From the IMG/VR virus record IMGVR_UViG_3300047471_001174: 64,000 nucleotides of DNA; one strand, 5' to 3'. Within the stretch, counting starts at the first letter, position 1; every line of letters begins with the position of its first letter. The stretch is from an uncultured virus (IMG/VR IMGVR_UViG_3300047471_001174). Its lineage: Duplodnaviria; Heunggongvirae; Uroviricota; Caudoviricetes. Of the stretch, positions 45,476 through 63,453 are shown in pieces. The notes beneath the pieces are model-generated. The model was not told the origin of the DNA and made no database searches. It was given only the letters and a program-made list of their open reading frames with translations. A program made the translations under genes and the position numbers.

Positions 45476-47977
45476 TCAGTCAGCACGAGCCACGTCTTCA
45501 ACGTTCGGCGATCCCATTTCACCCATGTCAGGGTTCATCGAGTTCTGACGAAGTTTCAACGTGACGTCGCCGCATTCTTCAAACGCATTTCGCATGGCAT
45601 CGATGAGATCGGGCGTCTCGGCCGCACCGTAGTGCTCTTTGACGTCATCCATGTGCCAGTAGAAGCTGAACAGAATACGCCCGATTCGGTCAAGCCCAGT
45701 CATCAGGTCGCTCAAGTAGCGATCGACCACGCTCTCCTGTCGAACCGAGTTGAGCAGGTTGCTCAAGATGGTCGTATCGAAGACTTCCTTCTGGCCAGAT
45801 GCCGCCGCATTTTGGACGCCCTGGGATGACGAATCCTGACCCTGAGAGAAGCTTCCCGACCCGGCCTGGTCTGTGCCGTAGGCGCCGGGGCCAGTCCCTG
45901 GATCGGGGATACGAGTGGGATCGTAGATCCAGGGATTGGTTGAGTAGGCATTGAGTCCTGGAACTTCCAGGTACTCCTCCTGCGGATACTTGTTGATCGC
46001 TCCGCCGTACCACGGGAAGCCGGATCCGGTCGGTGGCGGCCCTTCTCGGGGAGCACTCGGGCCCTGATCAAGCAGGTCGCCGCCGTAGCCGGGCCACGCG
46101 TCAGCCCGCTTCTGGTAGAACGGTCCGTACAGAATCCTGAACTTGGCCGAACCGGCTTTGGTCACTTTGTCCATGGCCGCGTCTGCATCATCAATCCCCA
46201 GCCCAAGGTCAGCAACCATCGCCACGTAAGCGGCTTGTTTGCTCATGCGGCGCGTGCCAAACTTTGTCGACAGAGCGATTTCGTCTGACCCAACCGTCCA
46301 GAGCTTGAGGGACGCTGTTTTCTGGTAGATCTGATTCTGCACGTCAATCAGGTTGCCAGGCTGGAGCGGCGAAATTGAGTCTTCGTCACTGTCATCTTCT
46401 GGGTCAAATGGGTCTTGGATCTTGAGGATTTTAGCGCTGTCGGGGATCCACAGTTCGCCACCAACGGCGTGGATGCTGGAGCCCTTACGGCCGTTCAAAT
46501 GCAGCAAGGCATTGTAATCCGTGTAACCCGACGGATTGGGCGGCGTGTCGCGGTCGCCCAATCCGTTGGTGCTGTAATTTCGCGACATGTGAGCGTACTG
46601 TGGTCGCTTGTGTCCGGTCTCGTATTGGACTCGGTAACAGTCATCATCCAGAACGCTGTTCACTGTAAACGGCAATGTACCGCGGCCGTCACCGGTCAGC
46701 GCGACATACGTGCTGTCCTTGGTCATCTTGGCGGACGACAATCCGTCGAACCAGGTCTTGAAATCGAACTGGCTTTCAATCGGCTGGCGAACGTAAATGT
46801 TCGTAGCGTCCGAGTTGATCCAGTTGCGGGCTGAACTTTGACCTTCCGCTCGGACGACAGTCACGAAGGTGTGCTGCCCCTTGCCGGAGTATGGGCGATG
46901 GATGATCAGGCACTTCTCGAACTTGCCGGCCCCGGCCAGCACCTCAGCCAGGGAAGATCGAGTTGGATTCGTGTAGGCCGTATGGATCGCCGTGTTGTAC
47001 AGGGTCGACTTGTCCTGCGGCAAGCGTTTGTCGGTGATCACGACGGCGCCGCGGCGGGTGTCGCCAGTGGCCTCTTCGCGTGATCGATCGGGAATGTTGT
47101 GCGTAAAACGTTCATTCGGATCGACCCGCATAATCTTCAAAGCCCCCAGCTTAACGGGGTCCTGGGGGGTCAGGTCGGGCAGTATGCTCGATCGGGAACG
47201 CGCGACTGCCACCTTCTGCGGCTTGAACGAGAGAATGCTGCCTCGATCCGACGCCTCTTTGGTCAGTCGGGCTTTGATGGTCAGTAGAGCCTTCTCAAAG
47301 ACGTCCGCTCCGTAACACCGGTGCATGGCCGCCTTGACGTTCGGGAATCGGTCACACAGATCGATGGCCATTTTCACGGCCATCGGAGATTCGCTCAGCA
47401 GGTTTTGGGCTGTCGCGATCTTCGCGTAACGAGTGTCACGCAGAGGGTTGGTCGTACAGAGACGAGCATAGACGGGCATGAACGGCTTGGCCCACTCTTG
47501 GATACGCGGCATGTCGCATGAGTATTTGCTACCGCGGTAAGCGTTCGTGAATGGACGCAGGTCCGGCCACATCCCGCCCATCTGGAACACATCCTTCTGC
47601 GACGCCTCGCCCATGATGTGTGGCGACTTGCTGAGCAGGAAGTTGACCCAGTTCTCCTTCATGGGGACAAACTGCCCCTCGTCCTTGTTCTGAACGAAGA
47701 GCAATTCCTGGCCGCGAAGTTCCCCATTCAGGAAAAACAAAGGCATGTACAGTCGCTTGGTATCAGCCTGGAAACCATAAACGCCGACAGCTCGTGACAT
47801 GTCGTCGTTGCGGTCAAGCAGCTGGAAGCCCAGCATGTGCTCGAGCAGCCTGGGGGCTTTTTCACTCAGGAAGTTATAGCCCAGCGAGGCGAACGATTGT
47901 TCGAAGTTCCCTTCAGGATCGCCGCCGATGTTAGCGCGTTTCGCGAGCGACTGGCTACCTGCAAGCAGAATGGACAT
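45476..47977 (-). CDS. Large putative head/core protein (833 aa) with K-x-A motifs
   Basis: AKRA, AKIA, TKEA, QKTA, SKQA, QKRA; no enzyme motif recognised. Confidence 0.65.
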   Translation of the reverse strand: MSILLAGSQSLAKRANIGGDPEGNFEQSFASLGYNFLSEKAPRLLEHMLGFQLLDRNDDMSRAVGVYGFQADTKRLYMPLFFLNGELRGQELLFVQNKDEGQFVPMKENWVNFLLSKSPHIMGEASQKDVFQMGGMWPDLRPFTNAYRGSKYSCDMPRIQEWAKPFMPVYARLCTTNPLRDTRYAKIATAQNLLSESPMAVKMAIDLCDRFPNVKAAMHRCYGADVFEKALLTIKARLTKEASDRGSILSFKPQKVAVARSRSSILPDLTPQDPVKLGALKIMRVDPNERFTHNIPDRSREEATGDTRRGAVVITDKRLPQDKSTLYNTAIHTAYTNPTRSSLAEVLAGAGKFEKCLIIHRPYSGKGQHTFVTVVRAEGQSSARNWINSDATNIYVRQPIESQFDFKTWFDGLSSAKMTKDSTYVALTGDGRGTLPFTVNSVLDDDCYRVQYETGHKRPQYAHMSRNYSTNGLGDRDTPPNPSGYTDYNALLHLNGRKGSSIHAVGGELWIPDSAKILKIQDPFDPEDDSDEDSISPLQPGNLIDVQNQIYQKTASLKLWTVGSDEIALSTKFGTRRMSKQAAYVAMVADLGLGIDDADAAMDKVTKAGSAKFRILYGPFYQKRADAWPGYGGDLLDQGPSAPREGPPPTGSGFPWYGGAINKYPQEEYLEVPGLNAYSTNPWIYDPTRIPDPGTGPGAYGTDQAGSGSFSQGQDSSSQGVQNAAASGQKEVFDTTILSNLLNSVRQESVVDRYLSDLMTGLDRIGRILFSFYWHMDDVKEHYGAAETPDLIDAMRNAFEECGDVTLKLRQNSMNPDMGEMGSPNVEDVARAD

Positions 47978-48016
47978 GTGGCGTCATCCTTGACGAGAAG
48001 TTCGATCAGCAAAAAT

Positions 48017-48223
48017 TTACGGCCCGAGTAACGCTCTCACTCCGATGATGATGACAGCGACAACGACAAAAAATCCAACACCGAGAATACCTACTATGAG
48101 CGGCAAAATCGTCGGAGGCATCGCTTGACCGGTCCCCTGGTTCATTGCCCAGATCATCCAACCTGTATCCCCAAGCACGAAAATTCCGACAAAGATCCAG
48201 TACAGTATCCAGGTCAGACTCAT
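48017..48223 (-). CDS. Small two-TM membrane protein (68 aa)
   Basis: Two hydrophobic stretches; AAAGGA RBS. Confidence 0.7.
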   Translation of the reverse strand: MSLTWILYWIFVGIFVLGDTGWMIWAMNQGTGQAMPPTILPLIVGILGVGFFVVVAVIIIGVRALLGP

Positions 48224-48244
48224 TGCGAAATCCTTTCAGACCGA

Positions 48245-51200
48245 TTATAGGCCCAAATTTTTCGCTCGGATAGCTTGAAGGCGTTCTCTGGCCAGAGAAA
48301 TTGGAGAAGCGGTCGCCTTTTTCTCTGCCAATTCTTTCACACGCAGACGGACGCGTTCTAGCTCGGCCGCCTTATTCAAAGCCGACGACACTGGGTAATC
48401 TTCGTGGAGAGCGATATAAGCCGGAGCTCTCAACGCACCCGACTGCAACTTCTCCTGGGACTTCACCCGGGCAACCCGCCCCACGAAATCGTCAGGTCGA
48501 TCATGCATCTGGCGACGAACATCGTCAGAAAAGCCAGTGCCAACACGGCCGAGAATAGGACCATCAGGCTCAGCAGAGTACTCAAAGCCGCCGGCATGAG
48601 TTCCAGCAAGACGGCCTTCGCCAGGGAAAATACCGCGGATGTGAACGTCGTGATCTTCAATGTACTTAGCCTTCTGGGGCTTGCCCGTTGGAGAGTGGAT
48701 AACGATTCCTTCCTCAGTTTTCGGGTGATCCCCGCTACCAATGTCTTTCCACAACTTCAGCGCATCTTCCGGTGTCTTGGCTTCGTCGGTCAAGTGAAAA
48801 ATGTCCTGCGGCAGCGACGGCAGAATGCTCTTCAAGTGTTCCCGACGTTCAGAATATGGCGTCTTGGAGAAGTCAATTGGCGTGTTGCCAACCTGTTGAA
48901 TGTCGAACAGTGCGTTACGGAGCCGAACGCCTGAGGTCTCTTGTTTTGCCAGCGAGTGAGCAATCGTTGAGTTGAGGATACCACCAAGTTCGCTGGGATG
49001 AATAACCGTTTCTTTTCCTTCGGAGTCTTGCTTGACCCCGTGTAACTCACCGCGCAGGATGCTGTTGTGGTACTCAGGAGGGATCTCAATCCGAGGCCGG
49101 CCATGTAACACCTTCTCCGTGTGAATGATTGGTTTTCCTGTCGGCTTTGATGCCCGGTACGAATACAGTTCGAGCTGATCCTTGAGCAGTTTGACCAGGC
49201 TCGATGCACCGTCAATCTTGGCCTGCACCGACGAACCGGGTTCTAACTCCTTCAACTTTCCTTCGACCTGTTCGGTCGGAACTTTCTTGTAGTGGATCTT
49301 CTGGTACGGCAGCGGCTCGGTCGGCGTCGTGTTGAGCAGCAGGTGATTGTTTTCACCGAAGCTTTTTGGCGCCACCACAGTGAACCGCTCGGGATGCTTC
49401 ATGTGAGCTGTCGTAAAATGCAGTTTGCCCGGACCCGACTCGGTCACCAGGGCCTTGCCCTTGATCTGACTCTTGACCGTACCGGCCCCGTATTCGCCCT
49501 CGGGAATCGTGCCCGACCAGCCCCCGTAGGAATGCTCGTGAATTGGCTGGTGGACAGCCAGATGCTTCTTCCCAGACTCGGGTAAACCCTTCGGCACGGC
49601 CCAAGAGTGCAGCCCCTGCTCCGGATCGCCAATCCTCAGATCAGTGTGGGGACCGGCTTTGGTGGCGTTATGGAGCTGTGTAAACAGGTCATAGAGCTTG
49701 CCCGTTTCGAGCTTGGATAAGTCTCCCATCTCGTCGCGAGAAGGAATTCCCAAGGCGTCATCGCTCGACTTGCCAAACGCGTTCATGACGGCCGTCTGAG
49801 GCTGCATTACGGCTGTTCCTGCGTCATTGGCCAACCAGTCTCCCATTCGAATATACCACGGTCGATTGGTGTCCTGACGCCAGCCGGCCGGCATCCCGTA
49901 GTGCAAACCTTCGGCCTCTTGACGATACGCATTGGTGTCATATGCTGCATCGTTTTCGAAGCCTGGAATTCCGGTCTTTTTACCGAGCCACCCAATCGGC
50001 TCGGCAACTGCGGCGCCGATACCGAGAGGCAAGAGCTTTGAGGCGGCACCTACTCCTAATCTGGGAACGGCTCGCACCAACGTATTTTTTGCTATCTGCT
50101 GCCCAGCTACATTAACCCCGAGATTGGTAGCCAGGCCAGGCGCTATGGCTTTCGCTTGATCCCATACTCCGGGTTGTGCGGCTGGTGCAACCGGATTAGG
50201 CAGACCGGGAAGATCAGTCCGCATCTGTTGGCCAAACTGCTGCGGCGTCATCGTGTTCTTGAAACCGGCAGTTGCCGGTGCCATCCCGGCGTCGTACCCG
50301 GGCCCACGCAGCAGATTACCGGCATGATGGAAGAAGTCACCGAACCCGTTGATCGAACTATCGCCCAGCACAGATTGAGGCTTCGCCTGCAAAGCCGGCG
50401 ACGGTGGAGGAGCAATCGGTTTTATTTGAGGCTGTGGTGGCGCCAGTGGTTTGATGGGAGCCGGTTTCGGGTCGAGAGCCGGGGCAATCGGGCTGCCAGC
50501 TGCGATTTTCATAGTCGATCTCTGCGGTGTAACCACAGTCGGCCGGATAACGCCAATGCGGCCAAAATCCACAGTACGGGCCAGGCCGGGAACATAGCTG
50601 GTACCCTTTTCGTCGCTGCCGCCGCCACGGTGGACCGAGTCCAGGAAGCTTGCCTGCAGCCCTGAACCTAGATTCCTTGTCATGGCGTCCGGGTCGTGCT
50701 GCAAGTTGTACATACCGCGAACCATGAGCGGATGGAATAGCGGCGGATCTTTGTGCACGTGAACCGATTCAACTCCAAAATGCTTGAAGTCCGGCAACAT
50801 GCTCGATTTGACCTTCGTACCAATCGTGTGGTGCAGGTAGGGCTTCTCGAGATACTGGCCGATTGCCTGGTGGACAGGCAGCGTGTGACTGCCTTCTCTC
50901 GGCTCGTAATCCCGTTCGATCGTGTCGAATGGGACAACGTCGTCTGGCGCGTGTTCGCCGATCTCCGCGTCGAGCTCGACGTGATTGATCAGACCACGAC
51001 TGATGAGTTCGAGATTTCGGCGATTGTTTCGAACACCAGAGTCGGTCAATGCTTTACGCATGGCATCCACAAAGTACCGGCGACCTTCACCAATTCCCTT
51101 GTGCTTGACGATCTCGGCCGGGCTGGGAATGCCCTCACTGAGCACGTCGCCAGCTTCAACCGCGTCGCCCGGGGCAACTGTCAAAGCCAGCCCGTGCGGC

Positions 51201-52396
51201 ACGTAATGCTCCAGTCCGTTCACCTGCACGTGCAAACCGCCGCCAGGTGCCTTGGTAATCTGCTGCACACGCCCGTCTACTTCTGAATGCGTTGCCCCGC
51301 CAGGAAATACCTTGGGGATCTGAACCAGGGCGTTGATCCAGGCAAAGCCTGACACTGATTTGGATGCTCCGGCAACGCCCCCTGCGTGCTTGGCGGACAA
51401 GGTGGCCTGCGACAACGGCTCAGAGATCGCCTGACCGGCCTGCAGACCGGAGAACGTTCCTTTGGGCGGCAGACCGCCAGTTTCTCGAATGCCAACATCG
51501 CGTGAGTAGAGACCCCCATCAGGTGCCCCGCCAACAGTCGGGCTGCGTACCAGAATTCTCTGAATGCCGCCATCATGCAGGGACTTCAGAACCTTGGGCG
51601 TCAGAACCGTGTTCCGCCCAAAACCACCAGCCGGATGGGCCAGCAAGGCCCCCACATTGTCGTTATCGTCGACAGGGACTGGCAGGCCTCGGACCGTATC
51701 GACCGGAGCGTCATCCTCATGCGTCACAATCAGCCGGTGGGTCGCTTGATTGAGTTGTTTCGCCAGGAAGCCTGACTGGGCTGTGCCCAGCTTCACACTG
51801 ACAATGCCGTGACGAGCACCATAGGCCCCAGCCCAATACTCGGCCGGCGACAGGCCCTCAGGGTAACTCCGCAGGACGGGGATGGGCACTGGCCGGTCGC
51901 GATGGTCGACATACAGCAGATCGGACCCACGCAGAGAATTGAGAGCCATCTTCTTGCCGCGAGCGCCTGACTTGATCTGCAAGGCGATCGGATTGTTCTC
52001 TTTCAAACTCTCGTCGTAGACGGCGTTCTCTTGTTCTGACTGGGCCTGACCCAGGAGTTTGACGATCTGGGACTCGCGTGCATCATCTGACAGGTTGTCA
52101 TTGTCGAGCAGTGACTGAACCTGGCTTTTGATGCGATCGCGAATGACATTGGCTGACCCGGCCCGTCGCATGGCATTGAGCCCGAACGAATAGCCGCCGA
52201 GTTGCTGAGCTGCGTCTTCACCCAGCTGGGTCAACTTGTGTGAGATGTCCCGGTACTTGTCGGGGTGACGTTCAGCCACATCCCGCAGCAGGTCGGTCAA
52301 GCCCCTTGAATCCAGGGTCTTACCGTTACGCAGATCTTCGGGCAGAGCCTCGTTGACCAGCAGCTGACCCATTTTCCCTATGAAGGTCGCGGGCAT
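48245..52396 (-). CDS. Polyprotein: RNAP beta' C-terminal half, spacer, LigD-type 3'-phosphoesterase, ATP-dependent DNA ligase
   Basis: Start moved to ATG 52396. RNAP part: SGARG, bridge helix GLSPAEYW...GARHG...TAQSGFLAKQL, trigger loop AGQAISEPLSQATLSAKHAGG. Phosphoesterase: QLH...HTDLR...SWAVPKG...LAV...H...GTIPEGEYGAG. Ligase: KIDG, GEL, FDI, EGIVI, KAK, VGTGFSD, LRAP. Confidence 0.9.
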   Translation of the reverse strand: MPATFIGKMGQLLVNEALPEDLRNGKTLDSRGLTDLLRDVAERHPDKYRDISHKLTQLGEDAAQQLGGYSFGLNAMRRAGSANVIRDRIKSQVQSLLDNDNLSDDARESQIVKLLGQAQSEQENAVYDESLKENNPIALQIKSGARGKKMALNSLRGSDLLYVDHRDRPVPIPVLRSYPEGLSPAEYWAGAYGARHGIVSVKLGTAQSGFLAKQLNQATHRLIVTHEDDAPVDTVRGLPVPVDDNDNVGALLAHPAGGFGRNTVLTPKVLKSLHDGGIQRILVRSPTVGGAPDGGLYSRDVGIRETGGLPPKGTFSGLQAGQAISEPLSQATLSAKHAGGVAGASKSVSGFAWINALVQIPKVFPGGATHSEVDGRVQQITKAPGGGLHVQVNGLEHYVPHGLALTVAPGDAVEAGDVLSEGIPSPAEIVKHKGIGEGRRYFVDAMRKALTDSGVRNNRRNLELISRGLINHVELDAEIGEHAPDDVVPFDTIERDYEPREGSHTLPVHQAIGQYLEKPYLHHTIGTKVKSSMLPDFKHFGVESVHVHKDPPLFHPLMVRGMYNLQHDPDAMTRNLGSGLQASFLDSVHRGGGSDEKGTSYVPGLARTVDFGRIGVIRPTVVTPQRSTMKIAAGSPIAPALDPKPAPIKPLAPPQPQIKPIAPPPSPALQAKPQSVLGDSSINGFGDFFHHAGNLLRGPGYDAGMAPATAGFKNTMTPQQFGQQMRTDLPGLPNPVAPAAQPGVWDQAKAIAPGLATNLGVNVAGQQIAKNTLVRAVPRLGVGAASKLLPLGIGAAVAEPIGWLGKKTGIPGFENDAAYDTNAYRQEAEGLHYGMPAGWRQDTNRPWYIRMGDWLANDAGTAVMQPQTAVMNAFGKSSDDALGIPSRDEMGDLSKLETGKLYDLFTQLHNATKAGPHTDLRIGDPEQGLHSWAVPKGLPESGKKHLAVHQPIHEHSYGGWSGTIPEGEYGAGTVKSQIKGKALVTESGPGKLHFTTAHMKHPERFTVVAPKSFGENNHLLLNTTPTEPLPYQKIHYKKVPTEQVEGKLKELEPGSSVQAKIDGASSLVKLLKDQLELYSYRASKPTGKPIIHTEKVLHGRPRIEIPPEYHNSILRGELHGVKQDSEGKETVIHPSELGGILNSTIAHSLAKQETSGVRLRNALFDIQQVGNTPIDFSKTPYSERREHLKSILPSLPQDIFHLTDEAKTPEDALKLWKDIGSGDHPKTEEGIVIHSPTGKPQKAKYIEDHDVHIRGIFPGEGRLAGTHAGGFEYSAEPDGPILGRVGTGFSDDVRRQMHDRPDDFVGRVARVKSQEKLQSGALRAPAYIALHEDYPVSSALNKAAELERVRLRVKELAEKKATASPISLARERLQAIRAKNLGL

Positions 52397-52418
52397 CTTG
52401 CCTACCTGCTGGTCTCTG

Positions 52419-52436
52419 TAACTTTGTAAAAAGTTA
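52419..52436. promoter_or_regulatory. 18-bp palindrome, copy 5 (TAACTTTG-TA-AAAAGTTA)
   Basis: Overlaps the upstream TAA stop; about 22 nt before the polyprotein ATG. Confidence 0.6.
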
Positions 52437-52673
52437 TTGGGTTGGTTCGGACATGACCAGGTTGTCGACGATGACTGTTTTATCGATCCCCAGTGTCTGC
52501 AGGGCCTTGTTGAATTTTTCCGGATCCTCGGCCGTTTCAACGAAAATGGCCCCATCGGGGCCGTACAAACTGGCCAGCGAGATGGGGGTTCCGTCGTCTC
52601 GGTAAATGACGACCTGACTGACTTCCAACCGCACGGGCGGCTTACCGAATCGTTCGATGGCTTCGATGTACAT
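52434..52673 (-). CDS. Hypothetical protein (79 aa)
   Basis: Start moved to ATG 52673 (TGATG coupling). Confidence 0.7.
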   Translation of the reverse strand: MYIEAIERFGKPPVRLEVSQVVIYRDDGTPISLASLYGPDGAIFVETAEDPEKFNKALQTLGIDKTVIVDNLVMSEPTQ

Positions 52674-53410
52674 CAGGCAATCTGGTCCTGTATGGCGGGC
52701 AGGTGACGCATGATAAGGCTGGCCGCGGCGGCCGACGTCGAGAGTGGGAGAATGCTTTCTTCCGAGTTGCACTCACCCTGGTCCATGAATTTGCGGGCCG
52801 TCTCGTCCGCCAGGGACGCCTTGTCGGTCGCCTGGTGCTGATGCTGCTGATGCTGCTGCTGTTGCCCGGGGCCGGCCGGCTGCATCGGCTGAATCGGCGA
52901 TATCGAGCTGGCCGGGGGCTGTGGAGCTCCCGTCATGCCAGCATTCTGTGCACTGGGTTGCTGTCCCTGTTCCTCGGTCGTGACCATGTCAGACGCCGGG
53001 ATTTGAAGACCCAGTGCGTCGATGATCTTGGCCAGCATGACGTTCAAACGGTGAAGCTCAACACCAACGTCGAGCTTCATTGGTTTGCCTCCGGGGCCCA
53101 TGCCACCACCGGCACCCCCGCCACCACCGCCCATTTGGGGCAGAATCTGCTGTAACTCTTGTCGCAGGACATTTCGAATCATTTCCTGGTCTACGGCGCC
53201 ACCGCCGGAACCAGACGAGCCAGACTGCGAGCCGATCCCGGAGATCTGTGACGGATCGACAGGGCCGCCCTGTGCGGCACCTGGGTCACCGCCGGGCTGG
53301 CCACCTTGCTGGCCAGCCATCTGTGACGGATCCATTGGAGTAAACGCGACCTTTGCGCTTGCAACAGCCGTTTTTGCCATTCGCAGCGCAGCAAGATTCA
53401 AGATGGACAT
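52673..53410 (-). CDS. Gly/Gln/Pro-rich putative head protein
   Basis: Start moved to ATG 53410; AKTAV and AKVAF near the N-terminus; low-complexity body. Confidence 0.65.
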   Translation of the reverse strand: MSILNLAALRMAKTAVASAKVAFTPMDPSQMAGQQGGQPGGDPGAAQGGPVDPSQISGIGSQSGSSGSGGGAVDQEMIRNVLRQELQQILPQMGGGGGGAGGGMGPGGKPMKLDVGVELHRLNVMLAKIIDALGLQIPASDMVTTEEQGQQPSAQNAGMTGAPQPPASSISPIQPMQPAGPGQQQQHQQHQHQATDKASLADETARKFMDQGECNSEESILPLSTSAAAASLIMRHLPAIQDQIA

Positions 53411-53446
53411 AGCCAGTGGCTCCAATGGACTGAATCAAAAAAGGAA

Positions 53447-53773
53447 TTAGCTGGCCGGAATGAGTTCCGGGGTGCCAATGGTCACAACCAGACCGACGGC
53501 TACCGAGGCCGAAACGGTCACCGGGACGGACGGAGCGGTGATGACCGTACCGTCAGCCAACGTGGCTGTGACGGTAAAGGCTGTCGAGCCAACGGCGACT
53601 GCGACAACTTCGCACGACAGACCGTCAGCCGACGGAATCAGCTTGACGACCGCTGGGTCGGCACCGGCCCAGACAGGAACAACGGTCAGTGGAACTGCGT
53701 GGCCCGCGGCGTTCACAGCGCCCACGGCACCGGCAACTTGCTGAAGATCAGTCAATGAAACAGAAGCAGACAT
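53447..53773 (-). CDS. Ig-like (Big-type) small protein, possible virion decoration
   Basis: PVWAGADPAVV...AVAVGSTAFTVTA; AAGGAGG RBS. Confidence 0.65.
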   Translation of the reverse strand: MSASVSLTDLQQVAGAVGAVNAAGHAVPLTVVPVWAGADPAVVKLIPSADGLSCEVVAVAVGSTAFTVTATLADGTVITAPSVPVTVSASVAVGLVVTIGTPELIPAS

Positions 53774-53794
53774 GTTTCGCCTCCTTGCGATTGG

Positions 53795-53995
53795 TTATTT
53801 GAATGTCGGACGACCGATGCTTACGACGAGTCTGGCCGGTTTGTGGTCGACTCGTTTCTGCATCAAAACTACGTACTTTCGATGATACCTGAAAGTGCCT
53901 GAGACCAGGTCATACCCGTGGTTTTTCCAATAGCGGATCTGGCCTAGCAGATCGCCGTACGAGGATGATTCGAGTTGCAGCAGGTCAGGAGTCAT
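53795..53995 (-). CDS. Hypothetical protein (66 aa)
   Basis: GAGGA RBS. Confidence 0.65.
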   Translation of the reverse strand: MTPDLLQLESSSYGDLLGQIRYWKNHGYDLVSGTFRYHRKYVVLMQKRVDHKPARLVVSIGRPTFK

Positions 53996-54008
53996 GCTTG
54001 TAGTCCTC

Positions 54009-54038
54009 AGTATACGCTGACAAGGTCAAGGGGAGCAA
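54009..54038 (-). promoter_or_regulatory. Possible sigma-70-type promoter TTGCTC-N18-TATACT
   Basis: Near-consensus -10 box just downstream of a terminator. Confidence 0.35.
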
Positions 54039-54046
54039 GATGGTCA

Positions 54047-54091
54047 GGCTGATAGCTAAAAAAAGGCTGATAGGGAAATTCCCTACCAGCC
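54047..54091 (-). terminator. Intrinsic terminator followed by conserved AGCTATCAGCC
   Basis: GGCTGGTAGGG-AATTT-CCCTATCAGCC plus T7. Confidence 0.8.
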
Positions 54092-54101
54092 GCTACATCC
54101 G

Positions 54102-54545
54102 TCAGCCTGTTGTTCCAGGTTCGGGCTGACGAGCTCTGAGATCGAGCTTAGCCCTCTTCATCGCCAAAGGACCCATAATCGGATCGGCCATGAGCAGATT
54201 GGCAACCCGTTCAGTTACCCGTTGAACGTGGGCTTTCGGGTCTGAACTGTCCTGCAGAGCTGATTTCGCTAACAGTCGGCAGGACGTCTGGCAAAGCATC
54301 ACCGTCGCGTCCAGATCGGCTAGCATCTCGTCGTCGGCATCATTTGCCGAATCCGAGTGCAGCTGCTCATGACCCAGGCTCACCCCGGTGGACTGATAAA
54401 GTATTCGAATGATGCGAGACTCGTCAAAAACTTTGTCTTGCAGCATCTGCTGGGCCTCGCTGTCTAGCCGCTTTGCCATTTCAGACAACGCGGCTATTGC
54501 CAGCCTCGCCACTGTATGGGCAAAACGATTAGTCGGTTTCTTCAT
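54102..54545 (-). CDS. Hypothetical helical protein (island 2)
   Basis: GGGAG RBS before ATG 54545. Confidence 0.65.
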   Translation of the reverse strand: MKKPTNRFAHTVARLAIAALSEMAKRLDSEAQQMLQDKVFDESRIIRILYQSTGVSLGHEQLHSDSANDADDEMLADLDATVMLCQTSCRLLAKSALQDSSDPKAHVQRVTERVANLLMADPIMGPLAMKRAKLDLRARQPEPGTTG

Positions 54546-54771
54546 GGCTACTCCCGTCGTATTTGTCGTCGACAAGGTCAGCGTGGAGCATCACAACCAG
54601 ACCATGACGAATCGCTAAAACTGTTCTGCGACGTATGTCAAAACATGGCGATTTCGGCGACGCTGCCGGTATGTCCATAATCGATCGTAATTTCGATCGC
54701 CCCAAAGCCAGATCGCGAAACCGTTGATCTTCCCGAGCCCATCCGTCAGTCAAATCAATTTGTTTGGTCAT
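54529..54771 (-). CDS. Hypothetical protein (island 2)
   Basis: AAAAGGTG RBS. Confidence 0.6.
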   Translation of the reverse strand: MTKQIDLTDGWAREDQRFRDLALGRSKLRSIMDIPAASPKSPCFDIRRRTVLAIRHGLVVMLHADLVDDKYDGSSHEETD

Positions 54772-54811
54772 CTTTACACCTTTTAAGCGGGGGGGGGATG
54801 AAGCAGCCCGG

Positions 54812-55015
54812 TTAGACCGGGCTGTAGACTGCGTTGATTCGCATCATGTCGAATGCATCGAGATACTCAATCACGCGTTCCCGACACAAACGGATGCGGC
54901 ACAGACGCCGCAAATTTTGAGCTGTCAGTGTCTGTCGCGAAATCTTGTCTTCTTCGTCGTCCAGGCGATGGAGTCGTTTGGCCAAGCTCGGACGGAGACG
55001 ATCACTGGAAACCAT
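54812..55015 (-). CDS. Hypothetical protein (island 2)
   Basis: GAAAGGA RBS before ATG 55015. Confidence 0.6.
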   Translation of the reverse strand: MVSSDRLRPSLAKRLHRLDDEEDKISRQTLTAQNLRRLCRIRLCRERVIEYLDAFDMMRINAVYSPV

Positions 55016-55041
55016 TTGAAATCCTTTCAATTAGTTACAGG

Positions 55042-55071
55042 AACGAAAATGGCCCGGATTATTCCGGGCCA
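55042..55071 (-). terminator. Probable intrinsic terminator overlapping the stop codon of the alpha-CTD-like gene
   Basis: TGGCCCGGA-ATAA-TCCGGGCCA followed by TTTTCGTT. Confidence 0.55.
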
Positions 55072-55454
55072 GCCAATTTCTTCTGGTAGTCTCTGACGGC
55101 TATCGCCTCACCGCGCAATCGTGAGTATGCCTCTGGATCAATGTAACCGCCAGGGTCGCCTCGGAGCGACAAACCGAGGTCTTTGAGAAACCGGCGGATA
55201 TATTCGACTGTCCAGAATCCGAAACCTCGGATCATTAACAAATCCGGTATGCTCATTTCGCACAATTCTTCGATCGACTTCTCCAATTTCTCGACCTTGG
55301 TTCGTGTCATTTTGTTTAGACCAGAAAAATCGCTCATAACCCGAGGCACAGCGATTGCCGGTTCATGCTGGTCAAGAACAACAGCCATATCACGTAACAT
55401 TTTGGCCTGAGCCTCGTGCCATGTCGCCAATAGTCTGGCCTTTGCGCCGGTCAT
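55059..55454 (-). CDS. RNA polymerase alpha-CTD-like (helix-hairpin-helix) protein
   Basis: SIEELCEMSIPDLLMIRGFGFWTVEYIRRFLKDLGLSL matches the alpha-CTD pattern I.DL...TE.ELLK.PNLGKKS..EI...L...GLSL. Confidence 0.7.
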   Translation of the reverse strand: MTGAKARLLATWHEAQAKMLRDMAVVLDQHEPAIAVPRVMSDFSGLNKMTRTKVEKLEKSIEELCEMSIPDLLMIRGFGFWTVEYIRRFLKDLGLSLRGDPGGYIDPEAYSRLRGEAIAVRDYQKKLAGPE

Positions 55455-55927
55455 GCTGACACCTCAAGCGGATCGTCTTTCACACGTAAGACTTCACCGA
55501 GCAACTGACCCGATTTCGAATAGAGCGTTGCAGTATTCAAACAGTTGACGCGATCGAACAGCGTGTCCGGGTCAAGATCCGTTTCCAACTCGAGTGTGAC
55601 CAGCCTCGTTCGTTCGTACTGGTCCATGCGTCGCTCGAGCTTAACCGTCATCTCGACCAGATTGATCTCGAAGTTGGGCTCCTGGGCCTCGACCGGCAAA
55701 TACCGAAGTGAGGGAACCCACACCCCACCGACATTAGCTTCTCCCAGGCCGCCCAGCGACATGGGGCCGATCAACGACCGAAAACATCTGTTGTCTGTTC
55801 GAGCTCTCACGAGAAAATCAGCCGCTTCGGGACTTGTTGGGATAATGTGCGGCCGTCGCTCGTTCACGACTTCACCATCCGGGCGCCGTTTGAATTGGTC
55901 GGCGTACGTCATTCTGAATAGGGGCAT
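55451..55927 (-). CDS. Hypothetical protein (island 2)
   Basis: AAAAGGA RBS; ATGA coupling. Confidence 0.7.
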   Translation of the reverse strand: MPLFRMTYADQFKRRPDGEVVNERRPHIIPTSPEAADFLVRARTDNRCFRSLIGPMSLGGLGEANVGGVWVPSLRYLPVEAQEPNFEINLVEMTVKLERRMDQYERTRLVTLELETDLDPDTLFDRVNCLNTATLYSKSGQLLGEVLRVKDDPLEVSA

Positions 55928-55951
55928 GTGTGTGTCCTTTTAGCGGGATAC

Positions 55952-55985
55952 AAAAGAAAATGGGCGACACCGAAGTGCCGCCCAT
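55952..55985 (-). terminator. UUCG-loop hairpin with U-rich tail (terminator or 5' leader hairpin)
   Basis: ATGGGCGGCAC-TTCG-GTGTCGCCCAT followed by TTTCTTTT. Confidence 0.7.
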
Positions 55986-55999
55986 ACAAGGTTTATGCC
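55985..55999 (-). promoter_or_regulatory. Candidate phage promoter GGCATAAACCTTGTA
   Basis: 12/15 match to 35526-35540. Confidence 0.45.
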
Positions 56000-56012
56000 T
56001 TGAAAACGCTGG

Positions 56013-56318
56013 TTATTTAGCTTGTTTTTGTTTCTTCTGCACCTTCTTTTTACTCAGTCTGATAAGCTTTTCTGTGGGGAAATACACAGGAACCATGGAG
56101 TCCTCCCCGACAATGTTTTTTCGCGGACTTCGTCTGACAGTGACCAACCCGCTCTCGATAATCTGTCGGAGCACCGCGTTCGCTTTACGCAGGCTGTAAC
56201 CTGAACTGATTCGAAGCTCCTTCGAAGTAAAACCTCCGTCGTTGTCTTTCTTTGATGCGGTCAGGCGATTCATCTCGCTGACCAGTTGGTCTAAAGTGAT
56301 TTCGCTGTTTGTCGTCAT
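56013..56318 (-). CDS. Small basic winged-HTH-like protein
   Basis: FTSKELRISSGYSLRKANAVLRQIIESGLV; Lys-rich tail. Confidence 0.55.
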   Translation of the reverse strand: MTTNSEITLDQLVSEMNRLTASKKDNDGGFTSKELRISSGYSLRKANAVLRQIIESGLVTVRRSPRKNIVGEDSMVPVYFPTEKLIRLSKKKVQKKQKQAK

Positions 56319-57181: not shown

Positions 57182-57197
57182 TTACCGTTCCCTCGGG

Positions 57198-57392
57198 TTA
57201 GGTTTCGACTGTTGAAATTCCGTCAGCTTCTCCAGCCTGATCGTCATCACCGTCATCGATTGAACCGTCGGTCAGGGGGCCGGCAGTTAGAACTTGGAGA
57301 GACTTGTCGGCATCCTCCGACGATCGTTTACCCTTCCGTGATTGCGATTTAACCGGGAGTCTTCGCAGTTCGTCCTTGAGCTTGCGTGGCAT
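57198..57392 (-). CDS. Small protein with basic N-terminus and acidic C-terminus
   Basis: Fills the gap; GGAAGG RBS. Confidence 0.5.
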   Translation of the reverse strand: MPRKLKDELRRLPVKSQSRKGKRSSEDADKSLQVLTAGPLTDGSIDDGDDDQAGEADGISTVET

Positions 57393-57441
57393 TTTTGCCT
57401 TCCTGGTCCATGTAAGAAAAACGTACTTAAACTTCTGACAT

Positions 57442-58313: not shown

Positions 58314-58449
58314 CGCATACCAGCCCTTCTAGGTTGTCAGCCACCCAGCAAATAGACCATATCAAGGGCTGATCCCATAGACGAAATTCCAAATAATCGG
58401 GAGGAATTTTCGGGGCTGGCTGTAATTCACGGCAGGCTTCGGACTTACG

Positions 58450-59034: not shown

Positions 59035-62000
59035 TCAATGGAGAATTGTCACCGAATCCTGCACGGTCAACTCTCCGCGTCGATAAGCGGCAATAGCGTC
59101 TTGCTTATTGCGAAATGTGATACTTCGACCAATTCTATCCGGTCTGGTTGATTCGAACAATCCCATTAGCATTTCGTGCCGTGGCATGAACATGGGCGTT
59201 CGAAAGTCGGCCGGGCTGATCAAATTGCGAGACGGCAGCATTCGCTCGACAGCGTCCTGCACTTCCGCATCACTCACAGGCACATGGTAGTTCATCTGAT
59301 CGCCATCAAAGTCCGCACCAAATCCAACCGTCACCAGCGGTGACAAGTGAACGGCGTTACCTTTCACCAGCTGCGGCCAAGCGGCCATGATCCCGTACTT
59401 ATGATGGATGGGCGCCCGGCTGTAGATAACTGGTCGCGTCTCCAGCTCATCAAGCAGGGCTTTCTTCGCCAGCGGGGTCTGATCCTTGTGAGCCTGCAGG
59501 GCATTCGTCAACGGCATGCCTTGGCGTTTAAGGCGACGGACTATGAAGTTTTTGTAGACGGTCCAGGCTCGTTCTTCGGGAAGTCCAATGGAATCCATGT
59601 CGAGGTCGGCGTTGGGCTGTACAGTGGCACGCCCAACAATATCCACAGGGGTACTGAGTAATCGGGACTGGACTGAGCCCCACTTGGGACTACTTCCGAA
59701 GATCCCGGCAAGCAGGCCTTTGACTCCCTTCTCGACCAGTTTCGGATGGCTTGGGTCGCCCAGGCCAGTGACTGCTTTGAACGAGTTATATAACGCAAGG
59801 CGTTCTTGACCCACGTTTTCACCCACCACCCCCTTCAGCTTCTTGAGCGTCGTATTCGCGTCAATCAGCTCTTTGTAAAGGTAATTGGCATCGGAAATAA
59901 TTGGTTGGCCCGAATCGGAAATCTTCGCCACCTGACGAAAGAGGGGGGGAAGAATTGGTGCTTTGTCGAGCATCCAGTCTGACGGGTGGATCCCCAGCGA
60001 CTTGGCTGCTTTGAGATACCCTAGTTTGCGAACGGCCACATCACGGGCTGTTTTCTTGCCCGACTTGATCTGCATCCTGGCGAGCAAAAGCTCCTTGTCC
60101 AGATTGATCCCCTGCAGGGCTTTGAACAGAGCTTGCGGTCCTGTACCGTGCGAACCGATCGATTCAGTCCCAGCCAGAACCCCTTCGAATTTGTTCTTAG
60201 TCAGGGCCAGCAGTTTACGTATAGGCTCTTCCATCACCGGATTGGGCATCGGGTCGGCCAGCGTTACGTGCGACCATCGGCGGCCCATATGCCCGCCAGT
60301 CAAAGCTGGATCGAACAAGCCGCCGGCCACCGGGCTCAGATCACCGTCAAAGTTGACCGTGTTCCCATTTTGCAATTCGCGGCCGCCCGACAACTGGTCA
60401 ATGTCCTTGTTCGTCAAGGCCATGACGTTCATGCTGGCCCCGTTGCGAACTGGGTTGATCCCAGCAGCTTTCAATTCGTTGATGAATTCCTCGTAAACAA
60501 GCGGGATACCGGGCTCGGGCGGGCGGTGCCCCTGCATGAAGGCCAGCCAATATGGTTCGTTTCGCTGGCCTCGTAACAATTGCGAATCACGCAGCAGATT
60601 CAACGCACCGTGAGACAACAGGGCATTCGTTTCCCCCATGGACAGCTTCTTACTTGACTCACCGTCACCACCCTTGGCCGGTACACCGCTGAGTGTGTAA
60701 CCACCCGAGGCACCGCGACCCTGTTCTTTGTCTTCGGCGATATGGTGCAGCTTCATGATCCACTGCACGCCAGTCTTCACGCCGGGGATGTATCTGTTGG
60801 TACCTGGGTCGAAGACCGTCTCTGTGTCGGGTACGCCATGCTTCTGGGCTTCCTGTTCGACGAAGGCTCGCAGGTCGGCAATGTTCGAAAAATCCTCAAT
60901 TTTGTACGGCTTGCCAGTCTTTTCCGCAATCTTGCCGAGTGTGGCTTCGTGGATCTTCACCGGATTGAGTCGCGACGGGATACCAGCCGGATTCAGTAAC
61001 ATGTCGAATGGGCGACCCGTGCTGTCACGCGGCATCAAGTCGTCCGACAGAATCTTGCCGATAACACCCTTGGCGCCGAATCGGTCACTCAACTTGTCTG
61101 ACTCCTGTGTCGACCGCATAGACGTCACAGTGACCATCGGTCCTTTGTCTGTCTTCACTACGTCGCGGACGATACCGGGTGAGTTGTACGACCAGGTCAC
61201 CGACGCGTCGGTGTGCTGTAGCTGGCCCTTGCGATGCACTTTGCTTTGCGAGTGCTCTCGCCCCTTTGCCAGCAGAATGAGTGGGTGGCCGTAATCAACA
61301 ACCGTGCCCGGCTTGACGACCCCATCCTCGTCGATCGTGTCCAACTGCTTTCGGTCAAACTTCGACGGGAACAGCGACACGTATGGCGCTTTGCCTTTCT
61401 TATCGAGTGCGTCACCCCAGGTCGCGTCGTGCTGGTACAAATGTTCTGATCGCAGTTTCTTGGCGAAGCTCTCCGACACCAGCTGGGCGTCTTCGTAGGT
61501 GCCGGCTCCATACGGCATGTATCCGATGTAGGCGTTCTTGCCGATCGCGATTGCCCCGTTGTCGTTGGTGAAGTTGGACTTAGCCAGAAGATCGTCCGGA
61601 CCGACACGCTGGCCCGGTTGCACCATTGGCGTATTGTGCAGTCGGCTACGGCGATTGAACGGAAACGAGTCATACAACTCGTAGTTCTGCGTCGTTCCGT
61701 CGTCGTGCTTGACCGTGATGGCTTCCGGCGATACGGCAGTGACCTGACCACCCTGCTTGGCTCGCACGGCACCCATGAATCCACCGAAGTGTTCGTCAAA
61801 ACTCTTCTGCCCGCCCGTTCCCGGAACAGCCGACTGAACGAATGGGGCTTCGGGGTTCTCGAGCGGCAGGGCTTGCGTCAACATACGGGCACCCATCACT
61901 GCCCGCTGGCCCTTCAAAGCCGACTTCATCGGCACCAGATTGGTGACGTCGCTGAAGACGTGTTCGAAATGCGGCAGCTCGTATTTGACATCGGCTTTGG

Positions 62001-63453
62001 ACACATACTGCAGCTTACCATTCAACATGGCTATGATTCGTTTGCCCGGTTTGGCCATTTCACCCGGGAAGGCGATGGCTGAATCAGCCACGTCCTGCGG
62101 GGTACGCCACTCGAGTTGCCCCGTGTGCAGATTGGTGAATTGTTTGGCGAGCTGCCCATCAGCCTTACGACGGACCTGTCCGGCGATATTCAGAATAACG
62201 CCAGCCGCCTCGCTTTCGGGCGTCTTCAGTGGATCCATGAATCCGAGATGGCTTGGCTGTACGGCTCGGGACTCCAACGGAATGGCTGTCGTGCTTGGTA
62301 GTCCACCGACACCCATGCTGGTGATCGTTGACATCTTGTCCAGCAGTTCGAGCGGTGATGTTTCCTCAAGACCCGTACCGACACCGCTGGTGAGGATGAC
62401 CGAGTTCAATTGCTTCTGGAACGGTCGGGAACCAATGCCCTGCAGATTGCCACGCTGACTGGCTTTGAACAACAGCTGACGGCGAATGTTGCCAGCATCG
62501 CGACGAATCCGTTCCGAGAACAAATCCTCGGGCGCCATGATTTTCTGGTAGGCCAGGTGGTCACGATCGTCGGGCTCAACTTCGCCCTTTTGCAATTGAA
62601 GCAGTTTCTGTGTCGTTCGAAGAATGGTCTCCGGTCCGACATTGGTAAATGGGTGCCCGAGCGTTCGTTTAGTGACTTCCGGATCGAGCTCCATGGCCTG
62701 AAAGGCATTTACCAGTTGCTCAGTCGTGTGCGCCTCGGTCTGATTCTCGGGGATCCGCGGGAGAAATTTCCCGGCCAGTTTCTTTACGTCAGCCGGATCG
62801 TTATGCGTCAAGTTGGTCGCGGCCAACTCGGGGCCCCAGGCGTCACGCAATTGATGGTGGGTCACGCCCATTGCGGTGAGCAACGACACTAGCGGCGTCT
62901 TGGACTGGGCTACGCGAATGTAGAACACGCCTTTGTCAGGATCTAGAAAGTAGCGGTGGCTCAGCCCCTTCCCAGGCATAACGTTCGTGTGGGCTTCAAT
63001 CTCGCCGTTGCCTCGAATACGGGTAAAGACACCAGGCAACAACCGCATCTGATTTCGAACGGCGTATTCAGTCCCATTGTGGATGAACGTACCACGGTCC
63101 GTCCGGTAAGGCACGTTAGCCAGTGTCACCCGTTTCTGGTCGACCAGCTGGCCTGTGACGTTATCCAGAAGCTGGAATGTGCCTTTCAGCGTCCGGCCAA
63201 GCGTGTCACCTGTCAGAATGGCTTTCTTCTGGTCCTTTAGAGAATACTCGTCCGGGCCAGAATAGTGGACGTCGGTCAGCTTTAACGTGTGCTTGGAGTT
63301 CGCCAGGGGCTCCAGGCCTTGCGCAGCCGTCAAGGTGTGGTCAAACAGCCTTTGACGCGCTTTGGACATGTCTGTGAGGCTGTCAGGCTCATCCTCGTGG
63401 GCCGCAGGGCGCATCGGCTGGAGCAGGCTGCCGGAGCCAGACAGGATTGACAT
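59035..63453 (-). CDS. Multisubunit RNA polymerase, fused beta plus beta' N-terminal half
   Basis: Beta motifs: GTFIHNG, HLGFMDPLKTPE, RAVMGARM, YEDA, DKLSDRFGAKGV, LNPAGIPSR, KLHH..EDK. Beta' motifs: GLFD, LPP..R, RAPIHH and catalytic GADFDGDQM at 59296-59319. Confidence 0.95.
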   Translation of the reverse strand: MSILSGSGSLLQPMRPAAHEDEPDSLTDMSKARQRLFDHTLTAAQGLEPLANSKHTLKLTDVHYSGPDEYSLKDQKKAILTGDTLGRTLKGTFQLLDNVTGQLVDQKRVTLANVPYRTDRGTFIHNGTEYAVRNQMRLLPGVFTRIRGNGEIEAHTNVMPGKGLSHRYFLDPDKGVFYIRVAQSKTPLVSLLTAMGVTHHQLRDAWGPELAATNLTHNDPADVKKLAGKFLPRIPENQTEAHTTEQLVNAFQAMELDPEVTKRTLGHPFTNVGPETILRTTQKLLQLQKGEVEPDDRDHLAYQKIMAPEDLFSERIRRDAGNIRRQLLFKASQRGNLQGIGSRPFQKQLNSVILTSGVGTGLEETSPLELLDKMSTITSMGVGGLPSTTAIPLESRAVQPSHLGFMDPLKTPESEAAGVILNIAGQVRRKADGQLAKQFTNLHTGQLEWRTPQDVADSAIAFPGEMAKPGKRIIAMLNGKLQYVSKADVKYELPHFEHVFSDVTNLVPMKSALKGQRAVMGARMLTQALPLENPEAPFVQSAVPGTGGQKSFDEHFGGFMGAVRAKQGGQVTAVSPEAITVKHDDGTTQNYELYDSFPFNRRSRLHNTPMVQPGQRVGPDDLLAKSNFTNDNGAIAIGKNAYIGYMPYGAGTYEDAQLVSESFAKKLRSEHLYQHDATWGDALDKKGKAPYVSLFPSKFDRKQLDTIDEDGVVKPGTVVDYGHPLILLAKGREHSQSKVHRKGQLQHTDASVTWSYNSPGIVRDVVKTDKGPMVTVTSMRSTQESDKLSDRFGAKGVIGKILSDDLMPRDSTGRPFDMLLNPAGIPSRLNPVKIHEATLGKIAEKTGKPYKIEDFSNIADLRAFVEQEAQKHGVPDTETVFDPGTNRYIPGVKTGVQWIMKLHHIAEDKEQGRGASGGYTLSGVPAKGGDGESSKKLSMGETNALLSHGALNLLRDSQLLRGQRNEPYWLAFMQGHRPPEPGIPLVYEEFINELKAAGINPVRNGASMNVMALTNKDIDQLSGGRELQNGNTVNFDGDLSPVAGGLFDPALTGGHMGRRWSHVTLADPMPNPVMEEPIRKLLALTKNKFEGVLAGTESIGSHGTGPQALFKALQGINLDKELLLARMQIKSGKKTARDVAVRKLGYLKAAKSLGIHPSDWMLDKAPILPPLFRQVAKISDSGQPIISDANYLYKELIDANTTLKKLKGVVGENVGQERLALYNSFKAVTGLGDPSHPKLVEKGVKGLLAGIFGSSPKWGSVQSRLLSTPVDIVGRATVQPNADLDMDSIGLPEERAWTVYKNFIVRRLKRQGMPLTNALQAHKDQTPLAKKALLDELETRPVIYSRAPIHHKYGIMAAWPQLVKGNAVHLSPLVTVGFGADFDGDQMNYHVPVSDAEVQDAVERMLPSRNLISPADFRTPMFMPRHEMLMGLFESTRPDRIGRSITFRNKQDAIAAYRRGELTVQDSVTILH

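Follow-up and report, generated by a model that had tools for sequence, protein, structure and literature searches.

A multisubunit RNA polymerase subunit fused to a phosphoesterase–DNA ligase cassette, a possible carrier of a processed repair enzyme in an uncultured soil phage

The heads of the phages phiKZ and SPN3US, according to the accessible part of PMC10052503, carry a multisubunit RNA polymerase (RNAP) that is ejected from them, and a prohead protease cleaves the head proteins at a short motif, which is found again in the parts removed. The “polyvalent proteins” of Iyer, Burroughs, Anand, de Souza, and Aravind (2017) combine disparate enzyme domains in a single phage polypeptide, which is proposed to be packaged, processed, and injected; the available text of that paper has no occurrences of LigD or DNA ligase, and 2H domains are described there as never seen with RNA ligases (PMC5512222). 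In the Bacillus jumbo phages, an HD phosphohydrolase domain is fused to the C-terminal part of RNAP beta, as far as the consulted portion of PMC7824862 describes it. In the virion proteome of the Salmonella phage Arash (available sections of PMC10585845), gp206 (beta) is the protein most detected, with 3516 spectra, and gp216 (beta') has 1210, comparable to the 1333 of the capsid protein. The RNAP subunits thus rank with the most abundant constituents of the virion preparations, in which a sigma factor, a helicase, and two RNA ligases are also detected. The present study deals with a gene at positions 48245..52396, minus strand, of a 64,000-nucleotide stretch of DNA from an uncultured member of the Caudoviricetes (IMG/VR record IMGVR_UViG_3300047471_001174), here called the window. 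In this gene, the C-terminal half of RNAP beta', a Pro/Ala/Gly-rich linker of approximately 245 residues, and a 3'-phosphoesterase plus ATP-dependent DNA ligase share a single frame. The chances appear about even that the whole proposed chain of events holds, in which a virion RNAP subunit would act as the carrier of a repair enzyme that is processed and delivered to the host.

The minus-strand frame is open from an ATG at 52555 to the stop at 48245-48247, a total of 1436 amino acids, and the residue numbers used here are counted in this frame (P0001), being 53 higher than those of a numbering from Met54. The gene itself encodes 1383 amino acids, from the ATG at 52394-52396 to the stop, or residues 54-1436. 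The Met54 start is supported by the alignments of the homologues, which open at residue 62 of the present protein and at residues 5-7 of their own, by the AGGTAGG found just 5' of this ATG, together with the end of the upstream gene at 52434, and by the ESM Atlas entry of the protein, which begins at residue 54. The in-frame stretch that reaches the earlier ATG (52397..52555, minus strand) overlaps a gene at 52434-52772 in another frame, is not conserved in the homologues, and is probably untranslated. An initial annotation, made from the sequence alone, had placed the start at 52396 and described one uninterrupted frame of about 1380 residues, and both statements are borne out. Its coordinates are also all correct (KIDG at 49208-49219, K683 of TMKIAAG at 50507-50509, K929 of FGKSSDD at 49769-49771, and the phosphoesterase at approximately 49331-49696), and its division of the protein into domains is confirmed by Pfam, PHROGs, and the solved bacterial beta' chains.

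The beta' C-terminal half (50507..52396, minus strand; residues 54-683) includes the bridge-helix and trigger-loop region, with the Pfam family RNA_pol_Rpb1_5 (PF04998) at residues 234-408 (3e-17, 63.3 bits against a cut-off of 28.5 bits). The solved bacterial beta' chains match residues 60-549, down to 1e-29, and the PHROGs family phrog_25354 matches at 3e-30. The GARHG... stretch is taken here to be the bridge helix, and the SEPLSQATLSAKHAGG stretch to be the trigger loop. The partner gene (59035..63453, minus strand) encodes a product of 1472 amino acids with the Pfam families Rpb2_2, Rpb2_3, Rpb2_6 (1e-41), and Rpb1_2 (1e-17), which supplies beta fused to the N-terminal half of beta', with the catalytic domain. 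Given that profile positions 169-539 of phrog_25354 fall on the partner gene, and positions 608-1083 on the present gene, beta' is split between two genes located approximately 6.5 kb apart. The window is identical to a 224,270-bp IMG/VR record (G001), which has direct terminal repeats, is rated complete, and comes from soil and rhizosphere metagenomes. This record has a single beta and a single beta' set (one Rpb2_6 place and one Rpb1_5 gene) and one phosphoesterase, and no second, non-virion RNAP set was found in it by Pfam, a search that very divergent copies could escape. The only match to sigma-70 region 2 in the same record, at 13.7 bits in a 75-residue frame (G001:C1:150112-150252, L133), is sub-threshold. 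The beta' C-terminal half of the present phage has no intein; inteins interrupt many of its orthologues (P0006, P0043, P0059, P0093, P0104, and others) in the precomputed Pfam matches (PF14528, PF05203, and PF01079).

The opposite end of the protein is occupied by the repair cassette, which begins with a LigD-type 3'-phosphoesterase barrel (49331..49696, minus strand; approximately residues 954-1075), recognized by the Pfam family LigD_N (PF13298) at 3e-12, with 46.9 bits against a cut-off of 31.1 bits. Its best matches are the stand-alone archaeal structures 3p4h (8e-12) and 3p43, and the phosphoesterase of the Pseudomonas LigD (3n9b, 2e-6). All six active-site residues (H962, H970, D972, R974, H1006, and Y1010) are conserved and align with those of the archaeal and Pseudomonas structures; these residues presumably have the roles assigned to them by the work of the Shuman laboratory. 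The nucleotidyltransferase domain of the ligase follows (48659..49300, minus strand; approximately residues 1086-1299), with motif I, K1113-I-D-G, at 49208-49219, and then the OB domain (48404..48655, minus strand; approximately residues 1301-1384), which contains GRVGTGFSD. The PHROGs family phrog_114, ATP-dependent DNA ligase, matches at 8e-19, and the Pfam family DNA_ligase_A_M (PF01068) reaches 1.2e-5 and 25.6 bits, just under its cut-off of 26.2 bits; weak OB matches are also found in the protein by Pfam. In an alignment of the present cassette with 21 short homologues, H962, H970, D972, H1006, K1113-x-D-G, E1170, E1282-G1283, K1295, and K1297 are the same in every sequence, and R974 and Y1010 in nearly every one.

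Residues 940-1436 were modeled with AlphaFold at a mean predicted local distance difference test score (pLDDT) of 89.4, and the best Foldseek matches of this model are without exception ATP-dependent DNA ligases, among them 3rr5 (1.6e-14), archaeal enzymes, the T4 enzyme, human LIG1 and LIG4, and Mycobacterium tuberculosis LigD (TMt 0.56), with no RNA ligases at ranks 1-50. From its residues, the cassette is predicted to be catalytically intact. An AEP-type polymerase domain is absent from the six Pfam matches of the protein at E<=1, and the low-complexity linker is the only room left for one. Ku (PF02735) was not found in the complete record, in a search of limited sensitivity, given that a search of this type failed to recover the ligase domain, which is weak but known to be present. 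The initial annotation had assigned the pair to the LigD of non-homologous end joining (NHEJ) in bacteria; the phosphoesterase and the ligase stand, but this label is too specific for a phage-borne mobile family with no polymerase domain and no Ku found.

The linker that joins the two parts (49772..50500, minus strand; approximately residues 686-928) is first Pro-rich, then Ala/Gly-rich, and has no detectable homologues. It contains one moderately hydrophobic, Gly-rich segment near residues 830-855. The search with residues 684-930 found no homologues among proteins of 789-2513 amino acids, no local BLAST match, and only sub-threshold matches in the ESM Atlas. Beyond the ligase, the C-terminal tail (48248..48364, minus strand) has approximately 40 amino acids, predicted to form two helices. 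No similarity was found between this tail and the other open reading frames (ORFs) of the window, so that no shared “address peptide” is seen.

The borders of these parts coincide with a short motif, K-x-[A/G/S]. The first, K683-I-A (TMKIAAG; 50501..50509, minus strand), marks the end of the conserved RNAP core. The second, K929-S-S (FGKSSDD; 49763..49771, minus strand), lies seven residues before the G of the GIPSR at the start of the module, the modal spacing of the family, and the third, K1395-A-A (LNKAAE; 48365..48373, minus strand), lies nine residues after the HED that ends it. A further K1412-K-A, at EKKATA, is found beyond the third border, and the other sites of the protein are K697 (KPA), K860, K966, and six in the RNAP core, in a total of 13, compared with 21.3 expected.

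The same arrangement recurs in the relatives. At the C border of the module, the motif is found within 14 residues of the HED in 84 of the 97 proteins that continue for at least 14 residues, against 12% expected, and in only five of the 51 proteins that end within 14 residues of the module. At the N border, a lysine occurs seven or eight residues before the G of GIPDR in 67/99 cases. The border between the RNAP core and the extension has a motif within 50 residues in 90 of the 96 sequences; for non-identical sequences, the count is 86/92, against 57.5 expected from the composition of the same 50 residues, and after clustering at <40% identity it is 62/65, against 41.3 expected (binomial p ~1.5e-9). 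Inside the extensions, by contrast, the motif is depleted, with 267 sites versus 495 expected (ratio 0.54), in a test that covered the 90 sequences beyond their first 50 residues (47,565 residues), with shuffling in 30-residue blocks. The control motifs R-x-[AGS], [AGS]-x-K, K-[AGS], K-x-x-[AGS], and Q-x-[AGS] have ratios of 0.99-1.03 in the same extensions. Within the module, the ratio of K-x-[AGS] is 0.48, and that of R-x-[AGS] is raised to 1.39, although these ratios weigh less, given that the columns are homologous.

Enrichment at the borders and specific avoidance elsewhere form the pattern expected of the site of a polyprotein protease, and the proposed cutting of a precursor at K-x-[AGS] is supported statistically by these sequence counts. 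The proposal of the initial annotation that the junctions fall on K-x-A/S is borne out by the enrichment at the borders of the relatives and the depletion inside their extensions. It had read the protein either as a polyprotein or as a coupled machine for transcription and repair; the first reading gains comparative support from the K-x-A/S borders as candidate cut sites, but nothing specific was found in favor of the second. No peptidase family was found in P0001 by Pfam, so that any processing would act in trans.

The fusion point is also a place where the orthologues vary. A first protein search took in only proteins of 789-2513 amino acids and returned 119 relatives, almost all with extensions or inteins; the IMG/VR loci are free of this bias. 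Among the 78 IMG/VR orthologues of the beta' C-terminal half with a readable end, 17 have an extension of at least 100 residues, up to 841 residues. These extensions are mutually unrelated, the present one is unlike every other, and most of them open with a Pro-rich stretch; recognizable enzymes are found in a few (P-loop kinase, acylphosphatase, NUDIX, DUF4269, and DUF5661). The gene on the far side of this slot (45476..47977, minus strand) encodes a conserved protein of 833 amino acids with no family match and no assigned function, and in the relatives it directly follows the beta' C-half gene. It is kept directly 3' of the beta' C-terminal half in 50 related loci, at 25-35% identity. Since the next gene is this same protein of approximately 800 residues in the 50 loci, the extensions are in-frame insertions between two conserved genes. 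The long and unrelated extensions in 17/78 orthologues suggest a cargo slot, and the view that the beta' C-terminus acts as a carrier for variable cargo in this phage clade is well supported by the sequences compared.

The cassette, in turn, is mobile and accessory, a module that passes from one phage protein to another. In an exhaustive, profile-free search, its cluster representatives number 2771 at E<=1e-3, with 694 of them at <=1e-30, and the identity among the matches listed is 43-56%. In the 149 representatives listed, the query's own fragment excluded, the module is stand-alone in 19, N-terminal in 48, C-terminal in 38, internal in 40, and incomplete in four, and none of them bears any likeness to the RNAP or linker part of the present protein. 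The partner domains in 31 of the longest representatives include 2H-SAK, InPase, NUDIX, SNF2 helicase, P-loop kinase, LNS2, GNAT, peptidase C39, lysozyme with LysM, DUF5661, and inteins, and the multi-enzyme relatives have two to six Pfam families per protein. The module is present in 10 of the 35 related large phage records (eight of the 26 that are at least 90% complete), in frames of 506-2984 amino acids. In record coordinates, the distance between the module and the beta' C-half gene is 12-20 kb for nine of the 10 carrying records, and approximately 45 kb for the tenth.

The comparison of fused and separate orthologues that the initial annotation had proposed finds the cassette at another place of the genome than beta' in all the carrying records, and fused to beta' in the present phage alone. 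In the record L015, for example, where the RNAP half is 41.6% identical, the cassette is a separate gene of 745 amino acids, followed by a gene of 168 amino acids, a beta' C-terminal half of 623 amino acids with no extension, and the homologue of 45476-47977. In L035, a stand-alone cassette of 431 amino acids lies two small genes downstream of a beta/beta' gene of 1673 amino acids, whereas in L034 the cassette is upstream of the beta gene, and in L019 it is located between the homologues of the major capsid and tail sheath genes. No other fusion of beta' with the cassette was found among the relatives of the beta' C-terminal half, the 149 listed representatives, or the 78 IMG/VR orthologues. 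The covalent fusion is thus confined to one phage, but the association of the cassette with RNAP genes or with the structural block recurs.

It is proposed that the natural C-terminus of beta' has gained, in frame, the low-complexity linker, the phosphoesterase–ligase cassette, and the short helical tail. The RNAP would belong to the virion and be produced late, along with the products of the head genes, and the cargo would enter the capsid through its covalent attachment to beta'. A putative head-maturation protease would then cut at the K-x-[A/G/S] sites of K683, K929, and K1395, which would free the RNAP subunit, the linker, and the repair enzyme within the capsid. The products would be delivered with the DNA, and the enzyme may strip 3'-phosphates or 3'-ribonucleotides and seal nicks in the incoming genome, such as those caused by host nucleases; this would be both its substrate and its role in the infection. 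The virion proteome of Arash and the position of the gene suggest, indirectly, that the RNAP may be packaged in the head, the present gene lying next to the head genes, and the module of L019 being inside the structural block. A wider form of this proposal is more tentative, with somewhat less than even prospects. In a widespread clade of uncultured soil jumbo phages, the C-terminus of the virion RNAP beta' would be an exchangeable slot, through which unrelated enzymes are loaded into the capsid by fusion, freed by a putative protease of new specificity for K-x-[A/G/S], and delivered along with the polymerase and the DNA. The cargo would be the heal-and-seal cassette in the present phage, and kinases, NUDIX, and many proteins with no assigned function in others. 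This border code would also organize the giant multi-enzyme carriers of the cassette in other phages.

A number of observations weigh against this proposal. Fewer than 40 residues follow the RNAP core in 59 of the 78 IMG/VR orthologues, and the fused form is found in one phage only, so that it may be a recent accident. No head-maturation protease of the Pfam families Peptidase_S77 and S78 was found in the complete record. Some of the first K-x-[AGS] matches are K-P-A in Pro-rich linkers, which may not be true sites, and the sequences behind the motif counts are homologous rather than independent, though the extensions are mostly unrelated. Arash (180.8 kb), the nearest cultured relative found, is only 26% identical, its gp216 has 606 amino acids and no extension, and some of the 116 “virion” proteins listed for it may be due to carry-over, according to its authors in the available text of PMC10585845. 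In addition, the fused ligase is the only DNA ligase detected in the 224-kb record (one place for phrog_114, no match to an NAD-dependent ligase), and this fits a housekeeping role as well.

The last of these points leads to an unlikely but still appreciable alternative, in which the RNAP is not packaged, and the cassette is the replication and repair ligase of the phage, which became fused to its neighbor by the loss of a stop or start, perhaps made in part from an internal start. The lack of another detected ligase is consistent with this, although the claim is weak, given that the genome search with PF01068 missed even the known copy, and is thus unusable for the counting of ligases. The stand-alone homologues begin a few residues before GIPDR, the present protein has internal methionines at positions 914 and 923, with a weak AGGA before Met914, and L015 and L035 display the unfused arrangement. 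On the other hand, a linker of 245 residues between the parts is unlike the simple loss of a stop codon, the module of L019 sits inside the structural gene block, and the border-motif statistics also argue against this account. The module is absent from 18 of the 26 near-complete relatives, and therefore does not count among the core replication genes of the clade.

A second alternative, of about the same low probability, is that the protein remains uncut, as a tethered machine that heals nicks or 3'-blocked ends during the transcription of the phage genome. The fusion lies at the natural beta' C-terminus, where the core ends as it does in the orthologues, the long and flexible linker would give the enzyme reach, and the module is often encoded beside the RNAP genes of the relatives (L015, L034, and L035). 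Enzyme domains on phage RNAP subunits are also known, as in the HD domain of the Bacillus jumbo phages (PMC7824862, in the part consulted). This reading leaves the K-x-[AGS] borders, and the avoidance of the motif elsewhere, unexplained in the absence of cutting, however, and it is opposed by the occurrence of the same module as a stand-alone protein or inside unrelated carriers, by the lack of the module in those 18 near-complete relatives, and by the unrelated cargos that the orthologue extensions bear.

The assembly was assessed in Logan contigs. Contigs of the runs X1 (76.9 kb) and X4 (77.4 kb), each possibly the source sample, with an independent assembler, bridge positions 48000-52800 with no differences. 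In two runs not flagged as the source (X10 and X11), the stretch is covered in pieces, again with no differences, with small holes at 49822-49875 and 49817-49853, and 18 runs contain half or more of the words sampled from 49300-51000. No stop, indel, or joint was seen across the gene in the contigs of these four runs, so that the misjoin, stop, or frameshift that the initial annotation had considered for the spacer is not found, and the gene is spanned in two runs. A chimeric assembly is unlikely, given that each of two separate runs has a long contig that reaches from one end of the gene to the other. An assembly chimera or a decaying, functionless pseudo-fusion is thus highly improbable, despite the unique occurrence of the fusion in the databases searched and the break of both low-coverage runs near 49817-49875 (holes that prove nothing), given these bridging contigs, the words recovered in 18 runs, the intact catalytic residues, and the 1383 codons with no stop. 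Each of the four runs also has short contigs (0.9-2 kb) that are unrelated but have two 21-base stretches in common with the RNAP part (50965-50985 and 51098-51118), on opposite strands; these are probably conserved RNAP words of other organisms.

All the large genes of the window are on the minus strand, and the RNAP genes are followed downstream by a gene similar to those of major head proteins (35624-36562) and one similar to those of tail sheaths (13858-16659). The present gene is found at 176573-180880 (plus strand) of the 224,270-bp record, where a simple offset places position 1 of the window past the end of the record; the source record of the window is therefore permuted, or longer at the terminal repeat. 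No match to the window was found among the GenBank phages by megablast, and tblastn returned only distant RNAP or ligase matches, none of them fused. Between the two RNAP genes (52673-59022), there are approximately 6.5 kb of small ORFs, including one at 58450-59022, directly downstream of the beta/beta'N gene, which is similar to HNH/endonuclease VII (phrog_1035, 1e-11), and otherwise with no family matches.

Some ORFs in the region bounded by the head genes and the RNAP genes are also rich in the border motif. The richest of the window (38995-41610), with 25 sites against 12.2 expected, encodes 871 amino acids and contains an intein (Hint_2 and LAGLIDADG_3), with exteins that have no family match; its product may be a portal, a protease, or an internal head protein. 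A second enriched ORF in the same region, at 42714-43991, has 14 sites against 6.8 expected. In the ORF at 41617-42717 (366 amino acids), two K-x-A-A sites are located within the first 32 residues, and beyond them come long, hydrophobic Gly-rich runs like the hydrophobic part of the linker. The ORF at 37701-38963 (420 amino acids) is mostly of low complexity (repeated GGPPPG), is predicted to be disordered, has several K-x-A sites, and has no match in the ESM Atlas. The products of these last two ORFs look like internal head or scaffold-type proteins.

If the proposed processing and delivery of the repair enzyme are correct, the locus would be a concrete example of how large phages load enzymes, by fusion to a protein that is already packaged and by cutting at a simple sequence code. 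The idea of the “polyvalent protein” would be extended to the multisubunit RNAPs and to DNA ligase and phosphoesterase chemistry, and the K-x-[A/G/S] code could predict the mature products of hundreds of dark-matter phage proteins. A heal-and-seal enzyme delivered by the virion would also represent a counter-measure of a new kind, directed at the host nucleases that introduce nicks or 3' blocks into the incoming DNA.

Among the known systems, Arash has the same two-gene layout of the locus, in which beta (with the beta' N-terminal half) is also followed by a gap of small genes, beta' C, and then the structural genes. The RNA ligases and the helicase of Arash, by contrast, are separate proteins detected in the virion, according to the available part of PMC10585845. 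With the bacterial LigD (3n9b) and the stand-alone archaeal phosphoesterases (3p4h and 3p43), the cassette shares the phosphoesterase barrel, and a ligase nucleotidyltransferase and OB fold with the motif I lysine, so that the expected chemistry is the healing of 3' ends, followed by sealing. It differs from LigD in the absence of the AEP polymerase domain and of any Ku found, in the low similarity of its phosphoesterase (2e-6), in its phage-borne family, and in its fusion to an RNAP subunit.

The RNAP subunit, phosphoesterase, and ligase in one frame recall the polyvalent proteins, and the partners of the cassette (2H, InPase, NUDIX, GNAT, and lysozyme) are domains of that work, in its accessible text (PMC5512222). 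The RNAP member described there is of the single-subunit N4 type, however, whereas the present one is multisubunit, and the in-chain zincin peptidase proposed there, which is frequent but not universal, is absent from this protein. The motif of phiKZ and SPN3US is A/S/G-X-E, cut after the Glu, and not K-x-[A/G/S]; these phages have two highly divergent RNAP sets in four or five genes, while the present phage has one bacterial-like set in two genes, and the consulted part of PMC10052503 describes no RNAP subunit with a repair enzyme attached by fusion. The HD fusion of the Bacillus jumbo phages is alike in joining an active enzyme domain to a subunit of a phage multisubunit RNAP, but it involves another subunit, another enzyme, and another RNAP lineage, with no linker, border motif, or mobile cassette described in the available text of PMC7824862. 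The literature searched, which subscription journals and supplements lie outside, contains no fusion of a ligase or phosphoesterase with beta' or any other subunit of a multisubunit RNAP, and no LigD-type enzyme of the virion, in agreement with the initial annotation, to which no described fusion of this kind was known. Virion-delivered multi-enzyme proteins are already known, but the carrier, the chemistry of the cargo, and the K-x-[A/G/S] border code appear to be new.

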